Assembly (NCBI GenBank): GCA_030765505.1
Contig: JAVCCL010000032.1
Span: 34,807-98,806 of the forward strand
DNA: 64,000 bases
Direction of reading: 5' to 3'
Source: Candidatus Kaelpia imicola
GTDB lineage: Bacteria; Omnitrophota; Gorgyraeia; Kaelpiales; Kaelpiaceae
Shown here one piece after another: positions 8,801 to 56,617 of this stretch. Both the position numbers and the translations under genes were made by a program. Under the pieces are notes generated by a model. It saw only the letters and a list, made by a program, of their open reading frames with translations, did not search any database and was not told where the DNA came from. Positions within the stretch are counted from its first letter, which is position 1, and each line of letters begins with the position of its first letter.

Positions 8801-11800
8801 GGTTACCAGGATTTTAGGTGTCTATGTAGATAATGCGACTGAAGCAGCACTAATGTGGCAGTCGTTGCTGCCATTTATGGGTAAAGCCGGTAGGATGCTG
8901 GGGAGTTTAAGTCCGAATTTATTTGGTATGGCGTTACGTTATGGAGTTAACGCTTCTATAGTAGGTACAGGTGCAGCAATGGGTTATCTAAAACCAGGGA
9001 GGAATTTATGGTCTTTCATGAATAATCCTGTTGGATTCTTAATCCCTGCGTCTGAACGTCTAGGTAATTTAGGAGATGTTTTTGAATTTATATCTGTTGC
9101 ATTGGATGGATTTAACTTTGCAAGGACTGGAAGATGGCCTACAAGATCTCCTATGCTAGATTTTTGTCGTAAATATGAGATCCATGTCCCACTTATTACA
9201 CAGATTCAAGAAAAGATAGAAGGCTTTAAAACAGAAGTAGCTTTGCAAAATGTGCTGAATAAATTTAAGACGGCTCGGGCAACTATACATCAGGCAAATA
9301 TAGTTTTTAGCGCAGGACTTTTTGCCGGCTTAGATGTAACTGCTCTAGAAGTGGAATCTTCTTCTACTTCAAGTAGCGTTGAGAGTCAGAGTGAATCAGA
9401 CGAAGAGCCCACTGCACAGTTTGTGTATTTTGCTGATTTAGAGAAGTTTCCGAATGAGGAGAGTTTTCTTGATTATATAAAAGGTTTTAAAGTACGAGTT
9501 AGTGGTGAAGTCAGAAACTTCTGGGATGTGTTATATGAAAAGAATGTTGACCAAAGTAAGACATTAACAGAAGCAGGATTTTTAAAACTTAAATATGAAT
9601 TGATTGGATTAACAGTAGAAGAATTACAAAGATTTCAGGAACTGAAAGGAGACGAAGCCGAAGAATTAATAAGTGCTGGAAATATGCCATTCTTTACTCA
9701 ATTTTACCGTGCTTTATCTGAAAATTTGAATAATCTAACAGATAGGACAGATGTTTCTTTAGCTCAGGCGTTGGCTAAAGTCTATACGGTTATGCACAAT
9801 ACCCTTAGCGTAGGAACAGGCATCCCTTTAAATCTAACATTCCCGCAACTGCTTGCAGCATACTTTGTATGTGAGGGATACAATGTAAGAAAAACTGATA
9901 CAGGTAAAATACGTTCAATTATAGATAAAGTCTTTAATGTATCTACAGGTGAAGGCAAAACCTATATAGAACCTGCAGCTGCAGCAGCGCTTGCATTGAT
10001 GAGGAAAGACGGGGAAAAAGCATTTGATACGGTGCTTATTGCATTCTCTTCTAATATTCTTTGTAAAAGAGATTTCGAGGGTAAAACTGATAACGACAGA
10101 GGTGTTAATATCGATATGCAGGAGTTTTATAGCGCCTTGGGCTTAAGAGTAGCCCATTTAGAGGAACCCCGTGATAATACAGTTAAATCATTTGTAGATT
10201 ACAAACGTAATTTACTAGAAAGGTTGAGAGGGCAGCATAAGCCAGACATTGTTTATGCACCTATTTCAAATATAATATTTCACATTGCTTATAAACTGGC
10301 TGATGAGGATTATTCAGAATTTGATAATTTAGACCGAGTAGCTGTAATTCTTGATGAAGTTGATGCTACTGCCTTAGAACAAGCACAGAGTCCATTTATA
10401 ATAAGCAGGGGTGGCGCAGAAACATACCGCGTTGGTACGCCAGAGGGAGATTTCTTTGAAGCTGTAGGTAGATATATTCGCGGATTGGATTTATTCGGCA
10501 AGTTTGGCTTGTGGGAATCATCACCTGAGGTAGATATTGATGCTTTGAAACAGGAAATCCAAGAATCTAGGGATATTAGCGATGAGGATAGAGAAAATCT
10601 GATAGAAGAATTAAGTGCAGGGAATAGTCCTTTGCAGGTATATCGTGACTGGAAGTTAAAAGTATCGTCTGAGTTAAGAGAGCAGATTCCAGAGATATTA
10701 GCTGACAATATTGCAGATTTAAATTACTCTGGCTTAATTGAGGCGCTGGGATCAGCCGAGAGTATAATACAAAATTATAAAGATAAGTACATTATAGAGT
10801 TTGAAAATGGTGTTCCAAGAGTAATTATTGTAAGTGAATTTAGTCACGAAGCACAGCCAGGTAAAAAATGGCAGAATTGGATACACCAAATGATAGAATC
10901 TTATGTAGAAGGGGTTCCTGTGAGTACGACTAGCTATACTTCAGGTTCAGTTATTATGTATGAAATACTTGCAAAAATGGGTTATGTTGTAGGGCTTTCA
11001 GGCACTGTGGATGTATTTCAAAAAGTTTGGCAAGATCTTCTTAATGCCGCAGTTATGACTTTTCCTGAAGCTTTAAATGATTTAGAGCAGTTTCGAAAGA
11101 CAACTCCTGTATATGGTTATACAAATTATGATCGTAGTCAACAGGATATGATTGGAAGCCTTATAGAGCATGCTATGCACGGCGAATCTGTTGTATTGGC
11201 AACATTAAAATATGAACAGAAGTGTGATGCTGTTTTGACATATTTTAGAGATCAGGGTGCCCAAATAGAAGAAGAAGCTATAGAGGAAACAGAGGGTAAG
11301 ATACGCTATAAGGTAACTTTGTCTACGGGAGATGTTCTGTATGTACAGAAATATGGAGCTCGGGAAGATTTAGACCCAGTGTTAAAAGGTATGATTGAAC
11401 AATTAGCAGGAGAAATGGGATTAATTACAATTGGTTCTCCGATTTTTGGTAGGGGAATTGACATTGATACATCACAAAGAATTTCTGAAGATTCTACTGA
11501 TAATAACGCGATATCTAAAAATGAATTGATTCAGGAAGTACTGGAGAATACATTAAGTGGTCAAGCTGTTGTATTTGCTTCAGAAAAGCATGAGGATGCA
11601 CTGAATGAATTCCTATCTTATTTAGCATTAGATGATATAGAAGCTGAGTCTGTAGAAGGCTTAGAAGGTGCTAGAAAAATTAGAATAGAGTATGAAGGTA
11701 AAGAAGTAGTATTGTTTAGTTACGGCACTAAAGAAGGTGATTTATCCCCAGAGGTAAAAGCAAAAATTCAAGCAGAGATAGACCAAGCTAATGAAATTAA

Positions 11801-12992
11801 TGGAGAGGGAGGGAGATTTATTATTTTCTGTTCACCAAATATTGGACAAGAGTTTAATGTTGGCGACTCAGATCAAGTATTGTATGAAATGAAAGGAGAG
11901 TGGGGTTCAATATATCGCAATCTTCATGTTGTTGCTGATGGATTAATGGCATTATGGCTTACACAGCAGATTATTGGAAGAGCAAAACGTGGAGGGCGAC
12001 CAGGGACTGCTGCAGTATTTTTCTCTACCGATTTTGTCAATGATCCAATTTGGCAGCAATATCAAAAATTGTTCATAGCTCATCCGGAATGGTGGGAAAC
12101 AATTGAATCAAGTGTTGTAAGATTGTCTGATTCAATTGGTGACGCAAGGATGAATGAATTTAGTTTTTTAGATGCACGTATTCAAGAAATTCAAGGTATT
12201 CATGTTCAATCAGTTCTTGGAACTTTGATGAATGTGATGGAGCAATACAAACCACTATATGAATTTCAGGTTGATTTTATACGGGGATTGGGTGAAAGAA
12301 TTAATGGCAATCTAACCCAAGAACAACAGCAGAAAATTCAGGAAATTCAGGAAATTCAAGAATCTAAGAATTTTACTGCCGAAGATAAAGAAGATTTAAT
12401 AGGGCAAATACATGCAAGGAATAATCCACATCAAGTGTTTAAAGAATTTAGAATATTTGAAACGCTAGGTGGAATAACAGTCGATAACTTAAAAGGCTGG
12501 ATTCAAAATGACTCTCTCTATTGTAGCGAAGAAACAAAAATTCAATTAATACAAACTTTAGAAAATGAGGATAATTTAATTTCTCCGCAACTGGTTTATT
12601 TAAGGTGGAGAATCTTGGATTCACCGCTATTATCAATAAATCAAAAATCCAACATTGAAGAGCTGTATACATTATTTGCAAACTCTGCAAGAAGTATTGG
12701 AAACAATAATTTGCCGGAGATTATTAATCAGTGTTTAGATGATGTAGGAAATGGAGACTTAAAAGCAATAATGTTAAAATATCTTACTCCTTCGGATCCT
12801 AATTCGCAAAATTCTCAAAGAGAGACAGCAACGAGTAGAGTTGTTCCTACATATAAATCAATGGTGTTGAATAATTTTGGTGGCGAACAAGCTGCTGTTC
12901 ATTATGGAATTAAGAGTGATTTTAATGACTGGCTCTTAGAAGAAGCAGCTGATATATATGAAATTTTAGTTATTTTGGATTTGGTGAACTGA
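5784..12992 (+). CDS. giant multidomain protein (2402 aa) with embedded SecA-like DEAD-box translocase motor
   Basis: 7.2-kb ORF; TTG at 5784 or, more likely, ATG at 5790 overlaps the upstream stop. It has an N-terminal TM helix ([17 protein letters not shown]), a ~900-aa acidic region, a central Gly-rich hydrophobic module ([28 protein letters not shown]...) and a poly-Ser/acidic linker. A SecA-like core follows. Its NBD1 motifs are STGEGKTY (Walker A), [17 protein letters not shown] and [26 protein letters not shown] (Walker B/DEVD). NBD2 matches are LSGTVD (compare MTGTAA), [11 protein letters not shown] (compare NMAGRGTDI) and [18 protein letters not shown] (compare [18 protein letters not shown]). 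Each was aligned by eye to the genuine SecA at 51090-53963. Confidence 0.8.
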   Translation: [2402 protein letters not shown]

Positions 12993-13011
12993 TATTAAAG
13001 TAATATTTGTA

Positions 13012-15936
13012 GTGTTATGCATTTTCACTGTGCTGGTAAGTCCGGGTTGGGCAGATAATATCTCTGGTTTTAAACAAATTATTTCGGAAAGACAAAACTG
13101 GAACTATATATATAATCAGATTATTGTTGGGTTTAAACATAATAGTAGCAATAAAGAGATAGAATCTTTTATTGAAGAGTATGGGTGTGAGCTGATGGCT
13201 CCGATTGATGAGTTTAGGGTTTACGCTTTAGTCTTACCTCGAGGAGTTTATTATAGCGAAGTGAAAAGAAGCTTTCTAAATGATAAAAGAGTAAGATATG
13301 TTTTACCCAGTTACTATATGCATGCGCAAAGCATGTCTGACTTAGAAGGCGTAGTAAAAAGAGCACGAGATGAAAACGAGAGTAGTTTAAATGAAATAGG
13401 ATTTTTACAAGCACAAGAGTATATGCAATTGTACAGTTCACTATTGCCTGAAAGTGGCGGTGTTGTATTTGCTCTTCTTGATAGCTCTGGTCTTCATCCA
13501 GAATTGATTCAACAGTTGAATGATGCAGGAATATATCGCAATGGAGTTTGTTTCCAAAGGAGTGTTGATAATAGTGTAAATGTGGTTAACAATATTGAAG
13601 AATATACAAATGGCCATGGTACTCAAGTTGCTACATTACTCAGCACTTTAGGAGAAGGTTCTGAAATTATGCACATACAGTTCGATGGTGGATTAGGAAC
13701 ATTTATCGAGGGGATTAAATATGCTATCAGAGAGACTAGAGATAATAAAGAGCGATTGATTATAAATTCTAGTATGAGCATTTCTTTAGAATCTTTTAGT
13801 TATGATACAATGAAGTTTTTATTAAGAGATTATTATTTAGCTCAATCAATTGAAGAAGCAAGAATCGATGGTCAGGATGATAAAGCAATATATGATAGCT
13901 ATATTGATTATCGTAATGAGGCTCGAATCAAATCTTATGGTATTGTTGACGAGATTTTTACAATGGTTGATTCTGGAATAATTAATAATTTTCAGAATTG
14001 GGATGAAAGTGATTGGGCAATTGTTAGAGAGAAGTTTTCTTTGTTTGACGAAGAGATAAGTTTACTTAAATATGCTGAACATGTTGCAAGACGCGATTTC
14101 CAGTATTTTGTAAAAAGTCCTCTTTATGAAGATTTTGAAGAATTTTCTCAACATGCAATTATTGTTTCTGCAGCTGGTAATTGTAATGATTCAGGCATGG
14201 CTTTACCTTCGAGTTATCCTGGAGTAATTGGGGTTGGGGCAAGCTATAATGATAATATTGCAAGTTATTCTCGCTATGGCAATGCGGTAGATTTATATGC
14301 TCCAGGAGGGTATGCCTATGGAGATGTTTGGACTTACGACATTCAGGACGGTAGTTTAATTGAAACTAAATCTAAGAGAGGAACATCCCTTGCAGCACCT
14401 TTTGTTACTGCAATGGTTGGCTTAATTTGGAATGAAAATCCAGATTTAACCCCAGCAGAAATGAGTAATATTATTATTGCAAGTTCTTGTAATATATTTG
14501 ATAGTAATTTGGAGATTTATTTTAAACAAATAGATGGGCAGCAAGCAGCTATTCTTGCTTGCGCATATTCTTCTATAAAAGATGTCATAGCATTAATTGA
14601 TGATTATACTTCCGATGAATTTGATTTATTGGAACAGATAAATCAAAATTTAATTTTTAGTCAAAAATTGATTTCAGAACAAGTTGAAAATAGGCTATTA
14701 AACGATATAGATCTTTTTATTTCGGGGGTGCTTACAGCGAAAGAGCTTGAGGTGAATTTTCTCACTCAGCTATGGAATTTGGAGTCAGATGTTGGCATAC
14801 GGGTAGCATCGGGATTAGCTATAAATTATCTTCAGGATGATAGAATTTTAAAATCTGTGCTGGAAAAAAGTATTTCTGGCACTTCGACAGATATAGTACA
14901 GAAAATGTTAGATATTGTAAGCAATGAGGATAATAATTTTGATATTTTTAAAATAGAGCATGTTTTTAAGTCGTATGTAGTATTGAGCGACTTATATCAA
15001 GATTTAAAAGATTCAACCATTTCCCAAAGTTCTTTTATGCAAAGTGTGGAATTAATTTTTGGTATGCAAAATAAAATGTTCGAGAAATATATTCCTCAAT
15101 TTGTGAGTATTATTAATAGATTTATAAATGCTGAAATAGATTCAAACCAAGCTCAGCAAATGGTGTGTAATATAGCGTGGGATGTATGTACATCATTAGG
15201 GGATGAAGATTCTAAAATAGCTATAGCATTATATGTTGATAGCTTAGATGATGTGGAGTTTTTAAAGAATCTTCTTCAGCATCAGTTTCCACAATTAGAC
15301 TCAGGAATAATGGATGTTATTATTCAAGAGTCTTTATTTGAATGTAGAGATACAGACTCTTTAACGTTGCATGTATTTGATGTAGCAAATACATTAAACT
15401 ACTTAAATGAAATGTTTACTGCTATTGAGAAATTTGATTTAGAGTGGAATAATGAAATAGATTATTCGGTAGATTATTTAAAGCTAAGTGATTTGGGTAA
15501 TTGGGAAGACTGGAGTAAATTTTTAGACCAAAATATTCAGCGGAAAGAGTACATGGAAAACTTAGAAGTCTATCAAGATGTAGAATTTTTTTATACAGGT
15601 TTAGTAGAAAATTTATGTTCAATTTTTTTGGAACAAAAAATAATATCTTCAGAGTTTCAGGATGCAATTAATGCTCATATTTGGGATTTTGTAAATGGAG
15701 ATATAGATATTATTGCTGCTCAAGGAAATATTTTGGATAGCATTGAACAGGAAGCAGAATTACCTCAAATTTTATTAGGTACAAGTATTATACGTAGCAT
15801 TAGGTGGGATGAAGTGGATAATATTAGCGTTCCAACGATAGAAACAAACACCTCTCTTACTGTTCCAGGAGTAGATACAGCTGTAATTGATCAGCAGTTT
15901 GGAAATATTGAATTTGATTTTAATCAATTTTTGTAA
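13012..15936 (+). CDS. subtilisin-like serine peptidase (S8 family) with ~500-aa C-terminal extension
   Basis: GTG start. Short N-terminal signal-like segment (LCIFTVLVSPGWA). Asp region VVFALLDSSG, His motif NGHGTQVATLL and Ser motif KRGTSLAAPFVTAM form a subtilase catalytic triad in canonical order. A long extension of unknown function follows. Confidence 0.75.
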   Translation: MLCIFTVLVSPGWADNISGFKQIISERQNWNYIYNQIIVGFKHNSSNKEIESFIEEYGCELMAPIDEFRVYALVLPRGVYYSEVKRSFLNDKRVRYVLPSYYMHAQSMSDLEGVVKRARDENESSLNEIGFLQAQEYMQLYSSLLPESGGVVFALLDSSGLHPELIQQLNDAGIYRNGVCFQRSVDNSVNVVNNIEEYTNGHGTQVATLLSTLGEGSEIMHIQFDGGLGTFIEGIKYAIRETRDNKERLIINSSMSISLESFSYDTMKFLLRDYYLAQSIEEARIDGQDDKAIYDSYIDYRNEARIKSYGIVDEIFTMVDSGIINNFQNWDESDWAIVREKFSLFDEEISLLKYAEHVARRDFQYFVKSPLYEDFEEFSQHAIIVSAAGNCNDSGMALPSSYPGVIGVGASYNDNIASYSRYGNAVDLYAPGGYAYGDVWTYDIQDGSLIETKSKRGTSLAAPFVTAMVGLIWNENPDLTPAEMSNIIIASSCNIFDSNLEIYFKQIDGQQAAILACAYSSIKDVIALIDDYTSDEFDLLEQINQNLIFSQKLISEQVENRLLNDIDLFISGVLTAKELEVNFLTQLWNLESDVGIRVASGLAINYLQDDRILKSVLEKSISGTSTDIVQKMLDIVSNEDNNFDIFKIEHVFKSYVVLSDLYQDLKDSTISQSSFMQSVELIFGMQNKMFEKYIPQFVSIINRFINAEIDSNQAQQMVCNIAWDVCTSLGDEDSKIAIALYVDSLDDVEFLKNLLQHQFPQLDSGIMDVIIQESLFECRDTDSLTLHVFDVANTLNYLNEMFTAIEKFDLEWNNEIDYSVDYLKLSDLGNWEDWSKFLDQNIQRKEYMENLEVYQDVEFFYTGLVENLCSIFLEQKIISSEFQDAINAHIWDFVNGDIDIIAAQGNILDSIEQEAELPQILLGTSIIRSIRWDEVDNISVPTIETNTSLTVPGVDTAVIDQQFGNIEFDFNQFL

Positions 15937-17586: not shown

Positions 17587-19296
17587 GTGAAAACAGAGAA
17601 GATTGTACTGTTTGTTCTAGTTTTTTTATCCCTGTTGCTTTTAAATATTTCATATGCAATAGAAGATTTAGAAAATTCAGGGATGTCTATATTAGGGGTA
17701 TATCCTGTCCAATGTCAATCTTATACCGTTTGGAACATTAACACATCTATCCAATCTTTTTCAATGCTTCCTATATTCAATTTAGAAGAGTTAAGCGATG
17801 ATTTCAAGTCCAACATAGATCTTAGTGGTGTATCTTTTTCTAATATAGAGGTTGAAAGTAATTTCAGTCCATATTGTTTTGATAATATTGTTGAATTGCC
17901 TGATATCGAAATAGAAGAGATTGTTGTTGAGTTACCTATTTCAGTAGAAGTTATAGATGAGGGAAATAAAGTATTTAAGCTTATCTTGGGCAATAAAGAG
18001 AGAAGCAGTATAAGTTTTATGGTTAAAGATGATGGTTTCTATGATTTAGAGGGTGAGTTTAAAGATACTTTCCTTGAGTTTGAATGGGCTAATGAACGCT
18101 TTAAAATAACTGTTTGTGATTCTGAAGAGAGCCTAGGGATATCAATTAAACCTTTAAATAGTGAGGTATACCCCAGGATATACTATAAGAAAGAGTTTAA
18201 TCTTGGGGTGTTTGATGGAGAGTACTCGTTGGGTTTTGTGAATCATAAACCTTATCTTGATATTATTTTAAAAGATTCAGATCAGGAGATTTTATCGGTT
18301 GATTTAGATCAAGATGAGCTATCTTTAAAGCTTAATATGAATCTTCCAATGTCTTTTGAGGATAGCATATCTTTAAGCTCCGACTCTTTTAAGATCGAAG
18401 ATGGAAATATTGATGGAAATATTGAAATTACATTAAATGAAGATGAGCAGAAGGTTGTGTTAAGAATAGGAGAGGGCGGTTACTTTGAGATAACTCAAAA
18501 TGGTAGCATGCGGGAGATAATAGATAAATTCTATACTGAGATTGCAGTTGATTTACAAAAGATGGTCGTACAGTTAGCAGAAGACGATGATAGTCTTGAC
18601 CCTAATATGACGGTAGATGATATAAGAGAGGTTTTATGGGAGGCAACAGGGGATGATTTAGAAGGTATGTTTGAAATAGTTCAGGATGCAAATGAGCAGA
18701 GACAGGGATTAGTAGTTCCAGGCGAAGTACGTCTATATTTGGATTTATCTAGTAATAATAGTCAAAAAAACGCTGAGCTTACATTTCCACTAATAGAGGA
18801 TAGCCTAGCCTTAAAGATGGGCTTAGAACCAGATGCTATTCAGATTAATTGTCTTGCTGATATATCAAGTATCTCAACTGCATCTACAGCTGAAGTTGGT
18901 TATAATAGTGATGGTCTAGTTCTATTTAAGCTTGCTGATTTAGCGGCGCTATCTTTAGTTAAGTTAGGAGTATCCCTTGATGGAAATATTGAATCTGTAG
19001 CTTTTAGAGTTAAAAATATCGAGGGTGATATCAACAGGGAAGGGTTTGAGGTAAGGAGTGTAGAAGATAGCTTACTTGGTTCATCAGCCTTGGATATTCT
19101 TCTTAGAGGATTGGAAGTTCAAGATAGTTCTACCAACTGGTGTTTTGGTTATGATTTTGAAGACGATTTATATCTAGGTTTTGGTATACCACTTAGTGAA
19201 GAAGTTAAGATTAGAGGCAGGATAAATAATCAAGGTTTAAGTTTTAAAACGCAGATATCTTTTATGGGGGGGGGGAATTCTAACAATAGAAAGTGA
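17587..19296 (+). CDS. secreted acidic hypothetical protein (569 aa)
   Basis: RBS GGAGGAAGGGG precedes a GTG start. Signal peptide IVLFVLVFLSLLLLNISYAIED. D/E-rich. Contains a G10 homopolymer 25 nt before the stop. Confidence 0.6.
   Translation: MKTEKIVLFVLVFLSLLLLNISYAIEDLENSGMSILGVYPVQCQSYTVWNINTSIQSFSMLPIFNLEELSDDFKSNIDLSGVSFSNIEVESNFSPYCFDNIVELPDIEIEEIVVELPISVEVIDEGNKVFKLILGNKERSSISFMVKDDGFYDLEGEFKDTFLEFEWANERFKITVCDSEESLGISIKPLNSEVYPRIYYKKEFNLGVFDGEYSLGFVNHKPYLDIILKDSDQEILSVDLDQDELSLKLNMNLPMSFEDSISLSSDSFKIEDGNIDGNIEITLNEDEQKVVLRIGEGGYFEITQNGSMREIIDKFYTEIAVDLQKMVVQLAEDDDSLDPNMTVDDIREVLWEATGDDLEGMFEIVQDANEQRQGLVVPGEVRLYLDLSSNNSQKNAELTFPLIEDSLALKMGLEPDAIQINCLADISSISTASTAEVGYNSDGLVLFKLADLAALSLVKLGVSLDGNIESVAFRVKNIEGDINREGFEVRSVEDSLLGSSALDILLRGLEVQDSSTNWCFGYDFEDDLYLGFGIPLSEEVKIRGRINNQGLSFKTQISFMGGGNSNNRK
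19266..19275 (+). repeat. G10 homopolymeric tract inside the 3' end of a CDS
   Basis: atgGGGGGGGGGGaattc, encoding MGGGNS near the C-terminus of the 17587-19296 gene. Extreme outlier for an AT-rich genome. Confidence 0.8.
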
Positions 19297-28917: not shown

Positions 28918-29012
28918 ATTTGACACATATTTAGAAATGCGGTATTTTTAAGGTAAGGGGGCAAAAATCTATTATAAAGAAGCGCAGTCTATTTGTTATA
29001 TTTTTCTTACTT

Positions 29013-29318
29013 TTGTCTGTTGTCTCATCTGGCAAATTTCAGGATATTTCGCTGAATTGTTTCAGAAGAGTAAGAGTGGGCGGTAATATTAATTTTTATC
29101 AAACAGTCCAAGATATCTTGATGGATTTAGAAGAAAGGATTACACATGTGGACAAGGTAATTGTATTTGATGAACTTCGCTGTGGGCCTCATGGCAGTAT
29201 TTCCTGGAAGAGATTGCGAAATATGTTTACTGATGAAAATAGAGTGATATCTGTAACTGATGTACCTGTGGATGAGAATGGAATTATTAACTATAGTACG
29301 AACAGCATTTTGGGGTAA
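29013..29318 (+). CDS. hypothetical protein (weak coding evidence)
   Basis: ORF only; no motif recognised. Confidence 0.25.
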   Translation: MSVVSSGKFQDISLNCFRRVRVGGNINFYQTVQDILMDLEERITHVDKVIVFDELRCGPHGSISWKRLRNMFTDENRVISVTDVPVDENGIINYSTNSILG

Positions 29319-29854: not shown

Positions 29855-29946
29855 GGAGAGGTGTGAGAGCGGCCGAATCAAAACGACTGGAAATCGTTTG
29901 ACCTAAGAAATTAGGTCCCTGGGTTCAAATCCCAGCCTCTCCGCCA
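29855..29946 (+). tRNA. tRNA-Ser (anticodon GGA), type II with long variable arm, CCA encoded
   Basis: Acceptor GGAGAGG pairs with CCTCTCC. Anticodon stem AACGA/TCGTT with loop CTGGAAA (anticodon GGA, U33, A37). Long variable arm GACCTAAgaaaTTAGGTC. T-arm GGGTTCAAATCCC. 3' end CCGCCA. Confidence 0.8.
29928..29946 (+). repeat. att-like 19-bp core (tRNA-Ser 3' end), copy 1 of 3
   Basis: AATCCCAGCCTCTCCGCCA recurs at 31515-31533 (exact) and 32738-32754 (variant ...CCGCTA). Confidence 0.8.
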
Positions 29947-30024
29947 TTAATCCTTCCTAAATCTATATTCTTCCTTAGTTTGTATTCGATATATCTATAT
30001 GGTATAAATATATAAAAGGGTGGC

Positions 30025-31314
30025 TTGGTAGATAAAATGAAGAGAATTTCAATTATTAAAATTGTTTTAATATTTTTAGCGTTTGGTCTATTTATTCCAA
30101 ATATTTCTTTTGCTAGAAGAACTAAGAATGCAGATAATATAGCAGTTTCTTTGCATCAAATACTTGTAGGAATTGGATATGAGCAAGAAGCAGGTGAAAT
30201 CAATGCTTTAATATTAGAAATTTTCCCTGATTTTGGGGATCTTAAAGCCTTATCTCCTCAGGCAAAGATTGTAGCTTTAGCTGATATAATAAAACAAAAT
30301 ATATCTGCACATAGCTGGAGTGAAGGAGAAGATTTATTATATTTTGAATTATCAGACGTGCTTAATAGTAGAAAATCCATTTGCTTTGGTTATGCCGAGC
30401 TTTTTTACGTTTTAGGTAAAACGCTAGGGCTAGATGTGGAGGTAATTCCAATTTATCCAGGACACGGAGCCAATCTGATTAAATTAGATAGTGGTCATGT
30501 GGTTTTAGATTTAGCTAATGAGTTAGTTTCTAATTATTATCAGAGTCAGGTTTTTAACTGGGATGAAAATTATCAAAGAGAAGGAAGTATATGGTGTTTA
30601 AAAGAAGGGAGTAATTTGCCTCAAATATATAAAATTGTTCAAAGGGTAAACGAGCAGGGGATAATTGAAGGTAGATACTATAATCGTGGTTGGATGTTAG
30701 AACAGGCGGGACGCACTAATGAGGCAGTCGAGTGTTATGGTAGAGCAACGGGAGTGGCTCAAGCTTGGAGCAACATTGGTTTAATTTTATCTAATCAAGG
30801 GCAATACAATGAGGCAATTCGATATTTTGACAGAGCGATAGAGTTAAACCCATATTTAGCCGAGACTTTTTACAATCGCGCTTCTACTAAAATTGTTCTA
30901 GGATTACACAGTGAGGCAGTTGATGATTGCGATATAGCGATAGGTTTTAATTCAAACCTAGCCCAAGCGTGGTTTAATCGCGGGACTGCTTTGGCCTTTC
31001 TAAAGCAATATGATGAAGCAAAAGAAAGTTTTAGAGAAGCAATAAAATTAACACCAGATCCATCAATTTTATCGGAAGCTTTTTATAATCTTGGTCTGGT
31101 TCATATTAACTTAGGGATCATTAATAAAGCGCTTGAATATTTTACATATTCAGCTCAACATAACCAAAATAATGCTGAGGCATGGTTTCATGTTGGATAT
31201 TGCAAATTCCAATTAGGACAATCACAGGAAGGAATTGAAGCTGTCAGAAAAGCGATTAAACTAGACCCTAGCATGAAGGATCGTCTTCCGCCTGAAGTTC
31301 AAAGATTACTATAA
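30025..31314 (+). CDS. secreted transglutaminase-like cysteine peptidase-fold protein with C-terminal TPR repeats, FARR leader
   Basis: Leader MKRISIIKIVLIFLAFGLFIPNISFA|RR. Cys-His-Asp arrangement CFGYAELFYVLGKTLGLDVEVIPIYPGHGANLIKLDSGHVVLDLAN (transglutaminase-like core). At least 5 TPR units (AWSNIGLILSNQGQYNEAIRYFDRAIELNP...). Confidence 0.65.
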   Translation: MVDKMKRISIIKIVLIFLAFGLFIPNISFARRTKNADNIAVSLHQILVGIGYEQEAGEINALILEIFPDFGDLKALSPQAKIVALADIIKQNISAHSWSEGEDLLYFELSDVLNSRKSICFGYAELFYVLGKTLGLDVEVIPIYPGHGANLIKLDSGHVVLDLANELVSNYYQSQVFNWDENYQREGSIWCLKEGSNLPQIYKIVQRVNEQGIIEGRYYNRGWMLEQAGRTNEAVECYGRATGVAQAWSNIGLILSNQGQYNEAIRYFDRAIELNPYLAETFYNRASTKIVLGLHSEAVDDCDIAIGFNSNLAQAWFNRGTALAFLKQYDEAKESFREAIKLTPDPSILSEAFYNLGLVHINLGIINKALEYFTYSAQHNQNNAEAWFHVGYCKFQLGQSQEGIEAVRKAIKLDPSMKDRLPPEVQRLL

Positions 31315-31360
31315 GTAAAAATAAGTGAATTTATCTAAAAACAATTTTCTCTTGGTAAAA

Positions 31361-31533
31361 TACTCTTGTGCCCAAACTGTGCCCATCTTACATCAAAACA
31401 AACGTATGCAAACGTAGGCAAACGTAACCATTCGCACTCGATAAGTCCTTCATAAAGCAGTGGTTTATAACATATATGTTGATATATAAGGAGTTAAGGG
31501 ATTTAATCTAATAGAATCCCAGCCTCTCCGCCA
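31361..31533 (+). repeat. ~170-bp island repeat unit R ending in tRNA-Ser 3' core (copy A)
   Basis: gtgcccaaactgtgcccatcttacatc...aaacgtatgcaaacgtaggcaaacgtaacc...aaggagttaagggatttaatctaatagAATCCCAGCCTCTCCGCCA. Near-identical copy at 32588-32756, partial copy at ~34335-34400. Confidence 0.75.
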
Positions 31534-31622
31534 TTAATCCTTCCTAAATCTATATTACCCCTCAATTTGTATCGTATATATCTATATGGTATAAATATAT
31601 AAAAGGATGGCTTGGGCATAAA

Positions 31623-32528
31623 ATGAAGAGAATTTCAATTATTAGAATTATTTTGATATTTTTAGCGCTTGGTCTATTTATTCCAAATATTTCTTTTGCC
31701 AGAAGGGTGAGGGAAGTATTAACTCAAGTTGATAATTTTGGGACAGTTACTTATTATGAAAGTTATAATGGTAATTTTCGTCCATTAAAAATAGTTGATA
31801 AATTAGGTCATGTTTTAGATGAATATTATTATAGAGGTTCTGAATTAGATAGAGTTATAACAACAAATTTAGAGACAGGAGAAAAGTTAGAATTACGAAT
31901 AAAAAAAGTAGAAGGTAGGCCTGGATTACAAGCTGATATATACATTGAACAAAAATATGTGGGATTTCGAGAGTGGGAAATTAATGAAGGATGGATAATA
32001 TTGGGAGATATTACTATAGATGAAGGGATGCGCAAAAATGGTATTGGCTTAACGGTTTCAAATTGGATTGTTGCTTACTCAAATATGGTTGAAGGTGTTA
32101 CCAAAGCAACCACATTGTCTCAAAATCCTCTGATAATTTCTATTATGCAGCGTGTCACTAAGTTAGAGACAGTTAGTTATGCTCAAGCTGCTCTTTTGGG
32201 TATTAGAAGTCTAGGAACCAATTTAAGCAATACAGATCTTATTAAAAGTATAGAGTCTTTTTCTATTGGCAATGCTGACAATCTAAGGTTTGGTGTTGAT
32301 ATGTATAGGGTGATATTTGATGATAGCAAAGTTTTTTCTTCAAATTATCCATCGTTGCCAGTAGGAACAGAATTGGATAATTTTGAAGTTCTTGGTGATT
32401 GGATAGTTAAGTTGGATGGAGTTGTTATAGGCCAGATTAAATCTTTTTGTTCCTTTCTGTGTTTAGGTGGAGAGATAAATCCAATTCACGTTTTCATAGA
32501 CGAAGAAGGTAAAGTGGTTCAGTATTAA
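31623..32528 (+). CDS. secreted hypothetical protein, leader paralogous to 30025 gene, unrelated mature domain
   Basis: The first ~28 codons and ~110 bp upstream are nearly identical at nucleotide level to the 30025 gene (MKRISIIRIILIFLALGLFIPNISFARR). The rest has no similarity. Confidence 0.65.
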   Translation: MKRISIIRIILIFLALGLFIPNISFARRVREVLTQVDNFGTVTYYESYNGNFRPLKIVDKLGHVLDEYYYRGSELDRVITTNLETGEKLELRIKKVEGRPGLQADIYIEQKYVGFREWEINEGWIILGDITIDEGMRKNGIGLTVSNWIVAYSNMVEGVTKATTLSQNPLIISIMQRVTKLETVSYAQAALLGIRSLGTNLSNTDLIKSIESFSIGNADNLRFGVDMYRVIFDDSKVFSSNYPSLPVGTELDNFEVLGDWIVKLDGVVIGQIKSFCSFLCLGGEINPIHVFIDEEGKVVQY

Positions 32529-32587
32529 ATAGATTAAATTGTCAATTGATAGCTCTGCAATATGAACGATAATAGAGAGTTTTATTT

Positions 32588-32756
32588 CTGTGCCCAAACT
32601 GTGCCCATCTTACATCGAAACATCCGTAGGCAAACGTAAGCAAACGTAACAATCCGCACTCAGTAAATCCTTTACAAATAAGAGGTTTATAGTATAGTTT
32701 ATTGATGTATAAGGAGTTAAGGGATTTAGCCTAACAGAATCCCAGCCTCTCCGCTA
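32588..32756 (+). repeat. island repeat unit R (copy B) ending in variant att core
   Basis: Same architecture as 31361-31533: gtgcccaaactgtgcccatcttacatcgaaacatccgtaggcaaacgtaagcaaacgtaac...cagAATCCCAGCCTCTCCGCta. Confidence 0.75.
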
Positions 32757-32807
32757 GTTAATTTTGGCTTCAAATTAGAAGTTCCACCTCTTTTAGTAAT
32801 GTAGAAT

Positions 32808-33806
32808 ATGTTTAAAAGAATACTTAAAACAGTTTACTGTAATGCATCTTTAAGCCAAAAACGAAAATTTATAAAATGTTACAAATATTTTAAGAAAGGG
32901 TGGATTATAAAAAATATTCTTTCTTCATTAGTTAGACGTTTCTTTATAATACGCAAAATTAAAAATTTTGCTCTCTTCGAACAAATGTTTTATTCCCAAA
33001 ATGGAGAGGATGGCATAATAAAAGCAATATTTGGTAAAATAGGATCAACTAATAAATTTTGTGTAGAGTTTGGCATTCATCCAATGGAGGGTAATACCAT
33101 TTACCTACAAAAAAAAGGGTGGAATTGTTTATGGATGGATTAAAATGGTGATGGAAAAGTTATTAGAAAAGAATATATAACTGTAGAGAATATTAATCAG
33201 TTATTAGTAAATTACAATGTTCCTAAAGAATTTGACTTGCTTTCTATCGATATAGATTTCAATGATTATTGGATTTGGAAGGCAATCAGGGGATACTCCC
33301 CAAGAGTTGTAGTTATTGAATATAATTCCTCTATTCCTCCAGCAGAAAGTAAGACTATAGAGTATGATCAAAATGCCCATTGGGATGGCACTAATTATTT
33401 TGGAGCGAGTTTATTAGCATTAACAAAACTTAGTAAATCAAAAGGGTATACTTTAGTGGCATGTGATAAAAAAGGAACCAACGCTTTTTTTGTAAAAACT
33501 GATTTGATTAAGAATAATTTCAAAGTTAAAGAAGTTAAAAAGATTTACAACCCACCCAAATATGGCAAAAAAGTCAATGGCAAATACATTGGGCACCCTC
33601 CAAGTAATAAATCAATGAGTTCTATTTTAATTAGTATTTCTTATGCTGCCTCTCTGTATCATGCTGTGTCTACGACTTTGTTTTCGACATTTTTGCAGGC
33701 TCCATCCAAAAATTACTTCACTTTATTCCGCAAAATTTGTTTAATCATATGCGTTAAAAAGAATTTATTGCTCAGTTTGATGAAATCAAACAATCTCGTA
33801 GAATAG
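32808..33806 (+). pseudogene. disrupted gene: single reading frame interrupted by in-frame TAA (33141-33143); weak FkbM-methyltransferase-like C-terminal half
   Basis: ORFs 32808-33143 and 33237-33806 are in the same frame. Translation runs through ...KGWNCLWMD*NGDGKVIRKEYITVENINQLLVNYNVPKEFDLLSIDIDFNDYWIWKAIRGYSPRVVVIEYN... with only one stop. Confidence 0.5.
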
Positions 33807-34451
33807 GATTAAAAAAGCTTTAAATCGTCAGAAACAATAGACCGATAGGTAATAACTGACGTGCGGAGATTTTAGTCACTACTATTGTGTCTTACCTTTA
33901 CTTTTTTGTATAGTATACGATATCTAAACGGTAAGAGAGTGTTTATAGATAATGTGAGAAAATTACTCATTTTAGCATTTGTTATGCTTTTATTATAATA
34001 AAGATAGCCTTGTAAGTATTTCTTGCAGGACGAGAAAGCGTTAAGCGATACAAATTTTCTAAAATGATAATTTGTTTTCGGGTATTACTGTTCCATCCAT
34101 TCTTTTGAATCAAAGGATCTAAATGTAGCGGAGAGAAGAAGAGAATTAATAAGTCTCTTTGATAATTGTTTAAATAAAGAAGAGATAGATTTTCTAATTA
34201 CAGGTTCTATAAAATCAATTATGTTAGCTTCTCGCTAATAAGCCATATCCCTCAGTTAGTCAAGCTGTACCTATATTAGGTATACTACCTTAGGATATTT
34301 TTATAATTTAATCTTATATGCATATATCCAGTAGACTCTTTACAAAGAAATATTTCATAGTATAGTTTATTAATGCGTATATGTTGTGGGTGTTAATCAA
34401 ATAGTTATTATTGGTATTGATTGTATGGAGGTAATTGTTTAAAGAATTATT

Positions 34452-40638: not shown

Positions 40639-40741
40639 AGTCTGCTTTTATAATTTTTCTCTTTTTTCTAATTTGAAAAGTAGTTAATTTTCTGTATAAT
40701 ATAGTTGTAGTTAATAGCTATAGTATCTTTCAATTTGCGAA

Positions 40742-40750
40742 GGGGGGGGG
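40742..40750 (+). repeat. G9 homopolymeric tract immediately upstream of a start codon
   Basis: gaaGGGGGGGGGattTTGagg... sits 4 nt before the TTG start of the FARR-leader gene at 40754. Confidence 0.8.
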
Positions 40751-40753
40751 ATT

Positions 40754-41662
40754 TTGAGGTTATACTTAAGATTTTTGATAATAATCAGTCTGTTTTTTTT
40801 ATCTAATCTCAATATCAATAATTCTTTTGCCAGAAGAACAAAAACCATCCCTAATGAGAATAATCCAGACGATAAGCTTGGTTCTGATATAGATTTGGCA
40901 CAACAAGAGCTTAGAGAGATAAAGCAGAGATCAGGTCTTTCTATAGAAGATTTTGCTAAGGAATTAAACATATCAGTTATGTTTATGCGTTTATACCTTG
41001 TAGGTAATATGGCTATCCCTGATGCTCGCCTTTAAGAGGCTCGAGAGAGATTTAAGCCTGGTCAGGATAGAGTGGCAGTGCTTGTAAGGCTGCAATCTGA
41101 ATTTGGATTAAATAGAAAAGTACTTGCTTTAAAACTTGGTATAACAAAGTTTCATCTAAGTAAGATATTAGGCTATAAAGTTCCTGTTTCAGATGAGATA
41201 TTCAATAAGTCAACTCAGCTTTATAGGCTAAATATGTTAATTAGGTTGCAGGATACATTGAGTGTTGATAATTCTGTTTTAGCTGAGGAGCTTGAAGTTA
41301 AGCTTAGTGAATTAGAAAAGATTCTTAGTGCAGAAGCAGATATAGCAGATGATATGGTTGAAAAGATAAGTCAATTGCAGCAAAAACATGCGCAGGAAAA
41401 TCAGAGAGAGTTTTATTATCCCGGTTATATCTATGCCCGCTGGCTGCTTGAAGAAGCAATAAATATATTGGGTGTAGAGGAGAAAGATTTTGCCAAAAGC
41501 ATAAAAACATCAGCAGAGAGTTTGACAAGGATATTACATGCCGGCAGTCCTATTGAAATCTCCTGTATAAAAAAGGCTCAGGATTTATTAAGTGATGAAG
41601 AGTTCACAAAGTATAAAGAAAGAATGGAAGAACGAATAGCTGAATTTATCAGTTCCTATTAA
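40754..41662 (+). pseudogene. FARR-leader secreted protein with four tandem ~40-aa HTH-like modules, interrupted by in-frame TAA (41033-41035)
   Basis: ORFs 40754-41035 and 41072-41662 share one frame. Read-through gives ...MAIPDARL*EARERFKPGQDRVAVLVRLQSEFG.... Modules: SGLSIEDFAKELNISVMFMRLYL / FGLNRKVLALKLGITKFHLSKIL / LSVDNSVLAEELEVKLSELEKIL / LGVEEKDFAKSIKTSAESLTRIL. Leader: LIIISLFFLSNLNINNSFA|RRTK. Confidence 0.45.
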
Positions 41663-51089: not shown

Positions 51090-53963
51090 ATGCTTAATTT
51101 TATAATGAAAAAGATCGTAGGAACCCAGAACGAAAGAGAGTTAAAAAAACTCAATCCTTTGGTTAATGAGATAGACTCTTATGAAAACGAAATGCAGAGA
51201 TTAACCGATGCAGAGTTGCGTCTTAAGACCGATAAGTTTAGAGAGAGGCTTTCGGCTGGAGAGAGCTTGGAAGATATTCTACCCGATGCTTTTTCGGTTG
51301 TAAGGGAAGTTGCAAAAAGAAGACTGAAAATGAGACATTTTGGTGTCCAGCTTATAGGCGGAGCAGTGCTTCATCAGGGTAAGATTGCTGAGATGGCAAC
51401 AGGTGAAGGTAAGACTCTCGTTGCGACACTCTCTGCTTATTTAAATGCTTTAAATTCAAAAGGCGTACATATTGTTACTGTAAATGATTATCTTGCTAAA
51501 CGTGATAGGGATTGGATGGGTTCTATCTATGAATCTTTAGGCTTAACTGTAGGCGTTATTGTGCATGGACAGAGCCATGCTCAGAAAAAAGAAGCTTATA
51601 ATTGCGATATTACCTATGGCACAAACAATGAGTTTGGGTTTGATTATTTAAGAGATAATATGGTGATATCTCAAGAAGATGTGGTTCAGCGAGCTCACCA
51701 TTACGCTATAGTAGATGAAGTTGATTCGATACTCATTGATGAGGCAAGGACCCCTCTTATTATCTCGGGTCCTTCTGAGGAGTCAGTGGATAAATATTAT
51801 CTTGCAGATAGAGTAGCTAAGCAGCTTCAGGCAAGAGTGATTATTGATGCAAGAAATACTCAGGATGGATTTACTGTAATCAGAACTCAGGATGGACGTG
51901 AAGAGAAGATTCCTCGGGAGGAGTTTAACGACAGCTGTGATGCTATAGCCGAGGAGAAGAGCAATAATTCTCGCATAACTCAAAAAGGTGAGAAAAAGTG
52001 TGAAGAGATACTGAAGATAGATAGTCTTTGGGAGGAGATGCCGAATGCTTATTCTGAACCCTGGTCTCATTACATAAACCAGTCTTTGAGAGCCAGGTTT
52101 CTATTTAAGAGAGATACTCATTATGTTGTAAAAGATGGCAAGGTTTTAATAGTAGATGAATTCACAGGCCGTCTTATGCCCGGGCGCCGCTGGTCTGACG
52201 GTTTACATCAGGCGATTGAGGCTAAAGAAGCTCTTAAGATAGAACAAGAGAATCAGACTCTTGCGACTATATCCTTTCAGAACTATTTCAGAATGTATCA
52301 GAAACTCTCCGGTATGACAGGGACGGCGGCTACGGAGGCCCCGGAGTTTAACAAGATATATAATTTAGAAGTGATCGTTGTGCCTCCCAATAAAACCTTA
52401 AGAAGATCGCAGAACCCCGATGTGATTTATAAAAGTCAGAGAGAGAAGTTCAATGCAGTTGTCGGTGATATTAGCCAGATGTATGAAGCGGGCAGGCCTG
52501 TACTTGTGGGAACTACATCCATAGAGAAGTCTGAGATTATAAGTGAATTATTAAAAAGAAGAGGAGTGGTTCACAATGTACTCAATGCTAAATACCATGA
52601 GAAGGAGGCTGAGATTATTGCTCAGACAGGAAGGCTTAAGGCGGTGACGATAGCGACAAATATGGCTGGCCGCGGAACAGATATTCTTTTAGGCGGTAAC
52701 CCGGAATTTTTGACAAAAGCTAGATTAAAACAGAATAATAGAGATAGTAACGATATTACCGAGGAGGAGTTTAAAAAGGCAGCCCAGGAAGTTTCATCTT
52801 TAGTGGAGGATGAGCATAAAAAAGTAATTGAATTGGGAGGCCTTCATGTCATAGGAACAGAACGTCATGAATCAAGACGCATCGATAACCAGCTCAGGGG
52901 GCGTTCTGGCCGTCAGGGTGACCCTGGCTCTTCAAAATTCTACCTATCGTTAGAAGATGATCTGATGCGTATTTTTGGTTCTGAGAGAATTGCTATGATT
53001 ATGGATAGGCTGGGCATTGAAGACGGCGAAAAGATAGAGCACGGTTTAATCACTAGAGCTATAGGTACGGCTCAGAAAAGGGTTGAGAGTTTTAATTTCG
53101 AGATCAGGAAGCATCTCTTGGATTATGATGATGTAATGAATAAGCAGCGTCAGGCAATATATAATGAACGCAGGGGCGTTCTGTTTAATGAAAATCTAAA
53201 AGAACATATTTATGAAATAATAGATGAGGTTTTAGAGTATCAGATAGAGATTTATATCTCTGAATCTGAACTGGCTGATAACTATGATTGGGATGGGCTC
53301 TCTAAGTGGTTATTGGATAAATTTAGAGTTCAGATTACAGGAGATAGATTGAAAGAGAGATCTTTAGAGGGTGAGAGAGAGCATAAGAGCAGCTGGCATA
53401 GGATCGTAACTAACTGCTTTGAATATCTGAGTACTAAGATGAAAGAGATTTATCAAGATAGGGAGAGAGAGCTGGAAGAGAATGAGATAAGAAGATTAGA
53501 GAGGATGATATTCTTACATGTTATAGATATGAGATGGAAACAGCACCTCTATGGCTTGGATTATTTAAGAGAGGGTATAGGTCTTAGAGCTTATGGGCAG
53601 AGAGATCCGTTGGTTGAATATAGAAATGAATCTTATGCGATGTTTCAAGAGATGGCTGCGAGGATCAAACTGGATGTTGTCGAGTATCTGTTCAAATTTC
53701 ATCCCAGGTTTAGGATGGCTTCAGGCGGTTTGATTGAAAAATCTGCCCAGGACTACAAACATGAAGAGGTTAATCAGTTCCAGTCTTTGAAAAAGATGAA
53801 ATCTGAATCTGAAGACCCAACTCGTTTGACGCCGCATGAGAAGCTAGGAGTAGATAGACACCAGACCTACAGGAGGGATAATAAAAAAGTAGGTAGAAAT
53901 GATCCCTGTCCTTGTAATAGCGGTAAGAAGTATAAAAAATGCTGTTATCCAAAATATGGATGA
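51090..53963 (+). CDS. secA: preprotein translocase ATPase SecA (with C-terminal zinc-binding [13 protein letters not shown] tail)
   Basis: [83 protein letters not shown], and a C-terminal Zn finger. Confidence 0.95.
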   Translation: [957 protein letters not shown]

Positions 53964-56521: not shown

Positions 56522-56617
56522 TCAGGTGTTATTATAATCTTATCTGTAATTTTCTTTAGCTTCCTCTGAGTATAGCCAGTTGCGAAATTCGTCCAACACG
56601 GGGAGTTTTATATCTCA

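Follow-up and report, generated by a model that had tools for sequence, protein, structure and literature searches.

In several bacterial export systems, the residues just after the cleavage site of a signal decide the next step for the exported protein. Examples are the lipoprotein +2 rule, the Bacteroidetes lipoprotein export signal, CsgA N22 and the AST domain of the accessory Sec pathway. These are the nearest functional analogies to the element described here, a putative portable N-terminal export module of Omnitrophota that ends in a basic tetrapeptide, R-[RV]-[VIT]-[RK] (the tag). The module was followed up from a 64,000-nucleotide stretch of Candidatus Kaelpia imicola (assembly GCA_030765505.1, contig JAVCCL010000032.1, positions 34,807 to 98,806 of the forward strand; hereafter the window), in which a preliminary description had noted four otherwise dissimilar proteins sharing a leader that ends in [SA]FA and is followed by Arg-Arg. 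As in the systems named above, the determinant would lie just past the cleavage site; unlike them, it has no lipobox Cys, a different sequence and no accessory SecA2/SecY2 in view. Judged from its sequence, the module appears to be a class of its own, borne by unrelated accessory proteins and missing from housekeeping envelope proteins, and the tag has the look of an address label, so far undescribed, that marks out a particular group of exported proteins of effector-like type.

The leaders resemble ordinary signal peptidase I (SPase I) signals of the Sec pathway in having a basic n-region, a hydrophobic core (h-region), a helix-breaking Pro or Gly and small residues at -3 and -1, and a canonical SecA is encoded in the window. 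They passed the sequence tests for n- and h-region and the -3/-1 rule, and have no Pro at +1. Unlike in ordinary Sec/SPase I substrates, however, the first four mature residues form a basic motif, R-R/V-x-R/K: the neutral or acidic early mature region typical of SPase I substrates is absent, and 32 of 37 carriers have Arg or Lys at +4. Inouye, von Heijne and Kajava reportedly found that basic residues early in the mature part impair Sec export in Escherichia coli and are depleted from ordinary SPase I substrates.

The nearest bacterial precedent for a rule at +1 is the Q-rule of Bacteroidetes, where most SPase I substrates expose a Gln that is cyclised to pyroglutamate (PMC5837995, PMC10653852). 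Both are phylum-restricted rules for the residue exposed by SPase I, but the Q-rule covers most substrates and serves N-terminal protection, whereas the Omnitrophota Arg is part of a four-residue motif confined to an accessory, effector-like subset. In eukaryotes, oomycete RxLR and Plasmodium PEXEL (RxLxE/Q/D; PMC3207932) proteins likewise carry a signal peptide and then, within 0-20 residues, a short motif of the Arg-x-aliphatic-Arg/Lys type. It marks large, fast-evolving effector-like repertoires, often encoded in gene arrays, whose C-terminal domains are unrelated. Formally similar, but with a different consensus, is the pattern R-x-[VIT]-[RK] before D/E/N/S/T, 0-20 residues past the leader. 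RxLR and PEXEL belong to the eukaryotic endoplasmic reticulum pathway, whereas here the setting is a bacterium and the tag usually abuts the cleavage site; the likeness is one of logic only, not homology.

Twin-arginine translocation (Tat) signals also contain two consecutive Arg in an N-terminal export signal. The Tat motif, S/T-R-R-x-F-L-K, precedes the h-region, whereas the RR of the carriers follows it, at or past the cleavage site. Tat was rejected, as it had been in the preliminary description, since the RR is C-terminal to the h-region, no second hydrophobic stretch follows and no curated NCBIfam N-terminal signal model matched any of 10 carriers. A lipoprotein (signal peptidase II) signal was rejected because no member has Cys at +1; the true lipoproteins of these loci (38473, 55616, L088:6705, L091:9189) lack the tag. 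Type IV pilin-like signals were rejected as well, the basic n-region running straight into the h-region without G-F-x-x-x-E, as were YSIRK/ESPR-type signals on sequence.

Conserved leaders joined to divergent mature parts are familiar from the Mycoplasma Vlp and Borrelia lipoprotein families. Polymorphic toxins exchange cassettes in a comparable way (PMC3482391). Part of the tagged set shares with these families a constant promoter and leader joined to variable passengers by duplication or recombination, with identity ending at a short motif. The constant part of those families is a lipoprotein signal or a large trafficking domain, whereas here it is an SPase I-type leader of about 26-29 codons plus the four-residue tag. 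The leader tag is not homologous to any of the systems compared.

The origin of the window is clear. The protein of the gene at 58096 is 100% identical to a protein of the Candidatus Kaelpia imicola metagenome-assembled genome (MAG; Omnitrophota, Ace Lake, Antarctica), and ten more window proteins are exact NCBI entries on one 103-kb contig (MDP8216699-MDP8216723 in the assembly). The species has been described (PMC8542988). In a six-frame translation of the window, [SA]FARR occurs four times, always on the plus strand, in frame and directly 3' of the basic-then-hydrophobic N-terminus of an open reading frame (ORF); no copy was seen elsewhere in the window or on its minus strand. Over 300 block shuffles, the mean was 0.077 copies and the maximum 2. 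The four leaders thus stand where the preliminary description had placed them. They are listed here with a slash marking the predicted junction, the first two belonging to tandem cassettes considered below.

30037-30114, plus strand: leader of cassette 1, MKRISIIKIVLIFLAFGLFIPNISFA, followed by RRTK; junction ..IPNISFA/RRTK, with basic n-region, h-region, Pro at -7 and S-F-A at -3 to -1
30115-30126, plus strand: basic tag RRTK of cassette 1, +1 to +4
31623-31700, plus strand: leader of cassette 2, MKRISIIRIILIFLALGLFIPNISFA, followed by RRVR; junction ..IPNISFA/RRVR
31701-31712, plus strand: basic tag RRVR of cassette 2, placed by structure prediction in a disordered linker (residues 21-29)
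40754-40831, plus strand: leader LRLYLRFLIIISLFFLSNLNINNSFA, also (L)RLYLRFLIIISLFFLSNLNINNSFA, followed by RRTK at 40832-40843; junction ..NINNSFA/RRTK
58096-58182, plus strand: leader MKNFKLKKYRFNCIITLIIFLFNLNVAFA, followed by RRIQ at 58183-58194; junction ..NLNVAFA/RRIQ

Some details of the preliminary description had to be changed. Its start at 30025 is a TTG, and the ATG downstream at 30037, used by NCBI, is likelier. The 30037 and 31623 leaders share 94% DNA identity, and about 100 nucleotides (nt) upstream share 91%, so that these two represent one duplicated module; four copies exist, but not four separate instances. The leaders at 40754 and 58096 have no DNA similarity to the cassette leader outside the motif. 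All four agree with the -3/-1 rule (SFA, SFA, SFA and AFA), and sequence rules support the proposal that they are of Sec type. The junction [SA]FA/RR is conserved and lineage-restricted as proposed, but the actual core is R-[RV]-[VIT]-[RK] at +1 to +4, and two likely members, at 56682 and about 28971-29318, had been overlooked.

Comparison loci were taken from Candidatus Kaelpia aquatica and from metagenome homologues. Kaelpia and related Omnitrophota loci (167 kb) contain 37 carriers with an h-region, usually AxA, and then R-[RV]-[VIT]-[RK]. The parts after the tag fall into 27 clusters (BLASTP, E < 1e-3), which bears out the claim that the passengers are dissimilar. All 37 carriers and the four leaders show a positive n-region and then an uncharged hydrophobic core in a hydropathy scan. 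Before the tag, the maximum 12-residue hydropathy averages 2.88, and the 40 residues after RR are not hydrophobic (mean maximum 0.83). Among the 37, position -3 is A in 11, S in 9 and V in 7, and position -1 is A in 26, the others being L, T, Y, I, Q and S. The members were picked by a regular expression that fixed +1 as R and restricted +2 to +4, and the counts there are partly circular: R in all 37 at +1 (by selection); R in 23 and V in 7 at +2; V in 14, I in 10, T in 5 and A in 4 at +3; R in 22, K in 10, Q in 2 and H in 2 at +4. Position +5 is mostly D, N, S, T or E. About ten members, here called the spacer class, do not follow the -3/-1 rule. Four groups of loci illustrate the range.

L088: seven genes, NSSA/RRAKD, GSYA/RRVKQ, LADA/RRVKN, PVEA/RRIKV, PVQA/RRIQN, PADA/RRVSE and ..TMDL/RRVKN
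L091: at least 12 genes, six with the leader MKPHKLITIGLVLLLG.CFT.PADA/RVVR
L097 (K. aquatica): five tag-bearing genes
L101 and L102 (one organism, Logan sample ERR14788038): five genes, all RRIR or RRVR, without AxA, the tag 7-20 residues past the h-region

The motif flavours RRxK, RVVR and RRIR are spread over at least five organisms. TypA of locus L094 clusters at >=90% with Omnitrophota MAGs, and LexA of L088 with Kaelpia and Saelkia LexA; L091, L099, L101 and L102 are placed in Omnitrophota by association only. The preliminary description would have given up its claim if the motif occurred only in recently duplicated leaders and nowhere else, and the motif is in fact widespread in Omnitrophota loci. 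As a separate observation, lexA lies within or beside tag-gene arrays on three independent contigs (L088:5875-6507, L094:8166-8795, L096:449-1078).

For comparison, 78 unrelated loci (585 kb, many phyla) served as an opportunistic control set with 153 signal-peptide-like N-termini. Two thirds of the signal-peptide-like ORFs in it lie on loci below 40% GC. The same crude finder was used as for the Omnitrophota set, its calls resting on in-house hydropathy and (-3,-1) rules. RR.[RKQH] was found in 20 of 67 Omnitrophota N-termini, AxA-RR in 12 and AxA-R..[RKQ] in 22, each against 0 of 153 controls. When the seed family was left out, a broader motif form was found in 26 of 61 against 2 of 153 (odds ratio 56, Fisher p = 1.6e-14).

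Genome contigs, in a collection without the source genome, were scanned with AATANTTCTTTTGCNAGAAG and yielded 78 matches, none after a leader; these were chance matches or an unrelated Bacteroidota 'NNSFARS' enzyme motif, and their loci were reused as the controls. An alignment of the leaders, which are too short for the method, gave one candidate and none scored in a 5.8-billion-protein word index, and a chimeric query of four passengers gave zero scored homologues. Curated NCBIfam models of N-terminal signal or sorting sequences, Tat-type included, had no match at E <= 1 in 10 carriers, and no Pfam or NCBIfam model covering the carrier N-terminus matched. The motif is not described in the Omnitrophota literature searched, nor in wider literature searches. 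Within reachable data, the tag class appears restricted so far to Omnitrophota.

Conservation of the tag is best seen in the family of the 31623 protein. A phmmer search against 1.84 billion representatives returned ten homologues, 28-52% identical. When the protein is aligned with eight homologues that are 26-52% identical to it, every sequence shows a leader and an Arg at the aligned +1 position. The homologue junctions read AQA/RRSR, VQA/RRIQ, AQA/RRIK, SSA/RKIR, ASA/RRVR, SQA/RIVR, NSI/RRIR and SIT/RRIR: across the family the h-regions have turned over, while the +1 Arg and the +4 basic residue are kept. A different kind of boundary is visible in L091, where six adjacent genes have 86% DNA identity from the ATG to the last RVVR codon and 26-34% in the 90-nt flanks. 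Because identity drops at the ATG and at the last tag codon, the conserved unit there is exactly leader plus tag. The codons of the six genes differ, with CGT, AGG or AGA for the +4 Arg and AGA or AGG for the +1 Arg. An RNA-level explanation was rejected, as the tag codons vary synonymously and no Rfam family was found in the window.

An AlphaFold2 (AF2) model of the 31623 protein from the nine-sequence alignment (mean confidence, pLDDT, 88.8; template modelling score, pTM, 0.82) has a leader helix at residues 4-18, a disordered stretch at 21-29 that includes AxA and most of RRVR, and the fold from residue 32. The single-sequence model was unusable (pLDDT 35). The tag is thus predicted to be a linear motif in a linker, outside the folded domain. 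From this pattern of conservation, the tag is very probably a selected functional part of the leader.

The passengers are diverse. The 31623 family is predicted to adopt a GNAT fold, its top Foldseek matches in the PDB all being acetyl-CoA-dependent N-acyltransferases, and carries an R-x-x-G-x-G motif. A second GNAT carrier was recognised by Pfam (L091:4888). Other carriers include an ARMT1-like damage-control phosphatase (L101:1587), a 993-residue protein with a beta-eliminating, pyridoxal phosphate (PLP) lyase domain (L102) and a WD40 propeller (L088:1323). The window adds TPR repeats with a transglutaminase-like domain, four helix-turn-helix (HTH)-like repeats, and a GatZ-like domain with a P-loop kinase-like domain; most other carriers have no Pfam match. 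The mature parts are acidic (net charge negative in 34 of 37) and Cys-poor, and no shared C-terminal signal is visible among the carriers. An anti-phage defence role was rejected: PADLOC matched no defence-system model beyond TPR. The N-termini of 18 GatZ homologues (about 35% identical, about 420 residues long) were read; all lack a leader and begin at the enzyme domain, so leader and tag appear to have been grafted onto a cytoplasmic scaffold in Kaelpia.

Conventional exported proteins of the same window do not carry the tag. It encodes Lnt, LptE, a BamD-like protein, sigma-54 and cell-envelope sugar genes, and the tag is missing from the BamD-like protein, LptE, a conserved 169-residue protein, the proteins at 424 and 17587 and the lipoprotein at 55616. 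The signal peptides without tag are the following.

424: ..TPAFG/QV
17587: ..NISYA/IED
37522: BamD-like protein
38473 and 55616: lipoproteins
40129: ..LGYA/QD

Two classes of exported proteins are thus apparent, tagged accessory proteins and untagged housekeeping envelope proteins. On this evidence, only accessory, effector-like genes seem to carry the tag; it does not extend to the secretome at large. The carriers are termed accessory because the tag-bearing block at 40663-41658 is missing in K. aquatica and because the tRNA-Ser cassettes differ between the two species. Their products make up a rapidly turning-over, effector-like set with domains of kinds usually at work in a cytoplasm.

The cassettes bear on how the module moves. 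Islands integrated at tRNA genes and cis-mobilisable elements are bounded by attachment (att) repeats. In the window, the last 19 nt of a tRNA-Ser gene (AATCCCAGCCTCTCCGCCA) are found again at 31515-31533 and at 32738-32756 (the latter copy has one mismatch), and the three copies delimit two tandem units. Each unit consists of a 5' arm of about 90 nt, the leader through the RR codons, an unrelated passenger, and a 3' arm of about 150 nt with the tRNA-end repeat.

29855-29946, plus strand: tRNA-Ser(GGA), its last 19 nt (29928-29946) forming the first cassette-bounding repeat
29947-30036, plus strand: constant 5' region of cassette 1, TTAATCCTTCCT...TATGGTATAAATATAT...AAAGGGTGG, about 91% identical to 31534-31622
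30037-31314, plus strand: cassette-1 gene, MDP8216699, with a transglutaminase-like N-terminal domain (weak match) and TPR repeats
31367-31533, plus strand: constant 3' region of cassette 1, with two copies of GTGCCCA and three of GCAAACGTA, ending in the second copy of the tRNA 3' end
31534-31622, plus strand: constant 5' region of cassette 2
31623-32528, plus strand: cassette-2 gene with the GNAT-fold passenger, of a family with leader and tag in all sampled Omnitrophota lineages
32589-32756, plus strand: constant 3' region of cassette 2, ending in the third copy of the tRNA 3' end, where the array ends

The constant 5' region, which probably holds the promoter and ribosome-binding site, is also present 3' of tRNA-Ser in K. 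aquatica (L079, GCA_030765335.1). That species has the same design (L079:1027-2236; AATCCCAGCCTCTCCGCCA at L079:1100 and 2218) with a single cassette, another passenger and a diverged leader, MKCNKLSVVLVCFILIGSVVFIPGHAYA/RRIKDD. Degenerate copies of the 3' arm lie upstream of a radical-SAM gene in both species (window 34329-34375; L079 about 4370-4480). K. aquatica also has, besides its one cassette, a Fic-carrying island with a degenerate arm.

The repeated tRNA-Ser 3' end, the conserved arms and the occurrence of the design in both Kaelpia species recall tRNA-integrated islands. Unlike such islands, the cassettes are only 1.2-1.6 kb long, each with one leader-bearing gene, and the window offers no integrase for them. 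No integrase Pfam domain occurs among the ORFs from the tRNA to the radical-SAM gene (29947-34451), and the only rve-domain gene of the window is insertion sequence (IS)-like (60288-61346). By their sequence, the cassettes look like tandem, integrase-less, att-bounded mini-elements. Scans of viral contigs for the 3' arm and the 31623 protein gave zero matches, and hence no sign of phage-borne cassettes; metagenome contigs scanned with the cassette 5' junction gave the K. aquatica copy and one chance match only. With the same promoter, leader, tag and 3' arm around unrelated passengers, the cassettes suggest that cargo is swapped behind a fixed export module.

Other tag-bearing genes of the window lie outside the cassettes.

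28971-29318, plus strand: probable additional member, leader (I)IKKRSLFVIFFLLLSVVSS, spacer, then F/RRVR (..LNCF/RRVR; RRVR at 29064-29075)
40663-41658, plus strand: accessory block of 996 nt with its own promoter-like sequence and a leader-bearing gene
40754-41662, plus strand: leader-bearing frame of 302 codons with a TTG start and four HTH-like repeats, interrupted by an in-frame TAA at 41033-41035
56682-58082, plus strand: probable spacer-class member, h-region CLLSVCVIVFLLNLHSFFI, spacer, then Y/RRCR (..NSAY/RRCR, 56871-56882)
58096-60234, plus strand: GatZ-like and P-loop kinase-like gene

Between carB and the gene of the 169-residue protein, K. aquatica and four Ace Lake contigs lack precisely the block at 40663-41658. 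The preliminary description had listed an 'HTH-repeat protein' at 41072; the HTH-like repeats are there, but ORF 41072 (196 residues) and ORF 40754 (93 residues) are one frame broken by the TAA, which suggests a pseudogene or a recent nonsense mutation. The K. aquatica cassette gene (L079:1212-2066) also has a single in-frame stop. A G9 tract (40742-40750) lies in the ribosome-binding site, 4 nt 5' of the 40754 start, and a G10 tract (19266-19275) near the 3' end of gene 17587-19296; either could be a site of slipped-strand phase variation or a hot spot of assembly errors.

The gene at 28971-29318 is a probable member of the set. Its K. aquatica orthologue (L079:44-316) has a clear leader, MKKRILFIMLLLFLSSISLDEFQNIPLNCF/RRLRADG, and an ATG where K. 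imicola has ATA/ATT, which could be a non-canonical start or mean that translation of the gene was lost. The gene at 56682, with a cupin or mannose-6-phosphate isomerase-like passenger, is a probable spacer-class member, held with lower confidence for its long n-region and uncertain start codon. Upstream of it, a 60-nt direct repeat (55453-55512 and 56600-56659, 80% identical) flanks the lipoprotein gene 55616-56521. Each copy holds a terminator-like hairpin, AAGCCTCTG...CAGAGGTTTTTTT, and the repeat points to a further small unit, inserted or duplicated, that directly precedes 56682 and 58096. Directly downstream of the 58096 gene is an IS-type transposase with an rve integrase core (60288-61346, minus strand), at a local reversal of GC skew.

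In the favoured explanation, sorting or maturation would take two steps. The module comprises a basic n-region, a hydrophobic core of 12-18 residues, a c-region usually ending in A/S/V-x-A and the basic tetrapeptide R-[R/V]-[V/I/T]-[R/K]. By sequence rules, the leader would pass through SecYEG and be cut by SPase I after AxA, giving a mature start of Arg-Arg-x-Lys/Arg. The exposed tag would then be an address label read after Sec, as its conservation, the type of cargo and the gene context suggest. Its reader may be a dedicated receptor, a secretion channel or a processing protease, and the destination would lie beyond the periplasm, at the cell surface, in the medium or in a partner or host cell. 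The module would spread by duplication or recombination that preserves exactly the stretch from ATG to tag. Strict conservation of the charge at +1/+2 implies a benefit outweighing the cost to Sec export, and specific recognition, over bulk charge, is suggested by the prevalence of Arg at +1 and of beta-branched aliphatic residues at +3. We infer a sorting or retention role for the tag; the two-step model as a whole has an even chance of being right.

A bolder form of this model is a bacterial counterpart of the PEXEL/RxLR principle, a bipartite N-terminal signal for a large effector repertoire that diversifies rapidly. After Sec export, a tag-reading machine would pass the cargo out of the cell and on into a host or prey, whose cytoplasm would supply the cofactors of the kinase, acetyltransferase, lyase and DNA-binding domains; outside the producer, cargo needing ATP, acetyl-CoA, PLP or DNA could work only inside another cell. 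Omnitrophota have been proposed to be host-dependent or predatory (PMC10066038). This form is tentative and on balance doubtful.

Several points weigh against export and sorting by the tag. Domains that need ATP, acetyl-CoA, PLP or DNA would be useless in the periplasm; delivery into another cell suits them, but retention in the cytoplasm of the producer suits them equally well. No candidate for a tag receptor or machine was found. The preliminary description had suggested recognition by a 'novel SecA-like machine', a link that was rejected: the window SecA (51090-53963) is ordinary and has every canonical SecA Pfam domain. About a quarter of the members lack AxA before the tag, with L, F, Y, I or T at -1 and a spacer of 7-20 residues. 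SPase I could not expose the tag of these members, so either a free N-terminus is not needed or another protease acts. Two carriers have in-frame stops (40754-41662; L079:1212-2066), and part of the tagged set may be decaying or recently inactivated. Finally, sampling was biased, most loci having been reached through homologues of one motif-bearing family.

The type of cargo also suits an uncleaved hydrophobic segment, with R-x-x-R/K as a positive-inside determinant that keeps the passengers in the cytoplasm of the producer. Positive charge just after a hydrophobic segment is a classical retention signal under the positive-inside rule, and P-loop kinase, GNAT, PLP lyase, HTH and phosphatase passengers are of cytoplasmic type. 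Against this topogenic anchor, the n-regions are strongly basic (MKR, MKNKK, MKNFKLKKYR), a feature unfavourable to N-out insertion. The cores, of 12-18 residues, are short (the AF2 helix spans 4-18) and end in Pro and a conserved small-x-small site, needless for an anchor (Ala at -1 in 26 of 37), and in the spacer class the RR lies 7-20 polar residues from the core, too distant to flank it. An anchor is accordingly improbable. We give a similarly low weight to a processing site, R-x-x-R/K or RR, at which a dibasic-specific, furin- or kexin-like protease or a specialised signal peptidase paralogue would mature or activate the cargo after export without routing it. Minimal convertase sites have the form R-x-x-R, which R-[RV]-x-[RK] followed by D/E/N/S/T resembles, and one gene of the window (13012-15936) codes for an S8 subtilase that has a pro-domain. 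That gene is unlinked to the carriers, however, and the tag mostly sits at the predicted SPase I site, leaving no propeptide to remove. Members without AxA, which need a cut other than that of SPase I to expose or remove the tag, keep this explanation alive.

The contrast between an acidic mature part (negative in 34 of 37) and a basic N-terminus, a distinct charge patch that AF2 places in a flexible linker, would also suit retention in the envelope, the cationic end binding lipopolysaccharide, phospholipid or capsule and holding the proteins at the surface or on vesicles. Two to four positive charges would be a weak anchor, however, and the preference for V/I/T at +3 and for Arg rather than Lys at +1 points to specific recognition over bulk charge; envelope retention of this kind seems quite unlikely. 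Finally, the junction might have no function of its own and be kept by copying of the leader module or gene conversion among paralogues, as in the tRNA-Ser cassettes. The near-identity of the 30037 and 31623 leaders (94%, with 91% upstream) and of the six L091 leaders (86%) is what such hitch-hiking predicts. It does not predict that h-regions diverge while the +1 Arg and +4 basic residue persist at 26-52% identity to the 31623 protein, that RRxK, RVVR and RRIR flavours occur in at least five organisms, that Arg codons vary synonymously (CGT vs AGG), that the 40754 and 58096 leaders resemble the cassette leader in DNA only at the motif, or that the strict motif forms occur in 0 of 153 control signal peptides. 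Hitch-hiking is largely contradicted by these comparisons and very improbable.

Further features of the window were noted in passing. An operon-like run at 1226-15936 contains genes for proteins of 1524 and 2402 residues without Pfam matches, followed by the S8 subtilase (974 residues, fervidolysin-like pro-domain). The 1524-residue protein has a conventional signal peptide and no RR tag. Strand bias is strong, almost all genes lying on the plus strand, and GC skew stays positive along the window apart from two intervals, 20-22 kb and 60-62 kb, which hold the minus-strand genes.

For Omnitrophota, neither a repertoire of effectors nor a signal for their delivery is known to us. The phylum is widespread, uncultured and ultra-small, and genomics suggests dependence on or predation of other cells (PMC10066038). 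A short, searchable tag that separates an effector-like from a housekeeping secretome would make the Omnitrophota repertoire predictable from sequence and would give a handle on the machine that reads it. As a natural, conserved exception to the avoidance of positive charge in early mature Sec substrates, the tag would also be of interest to signal-peptide biology and for training SignalP-type predictors. If the likeness to PEXEL and RxLR were to hold, one line of sequence pattern would suffice to predict which effectors this uncultured, host-dependent phylum possesses.

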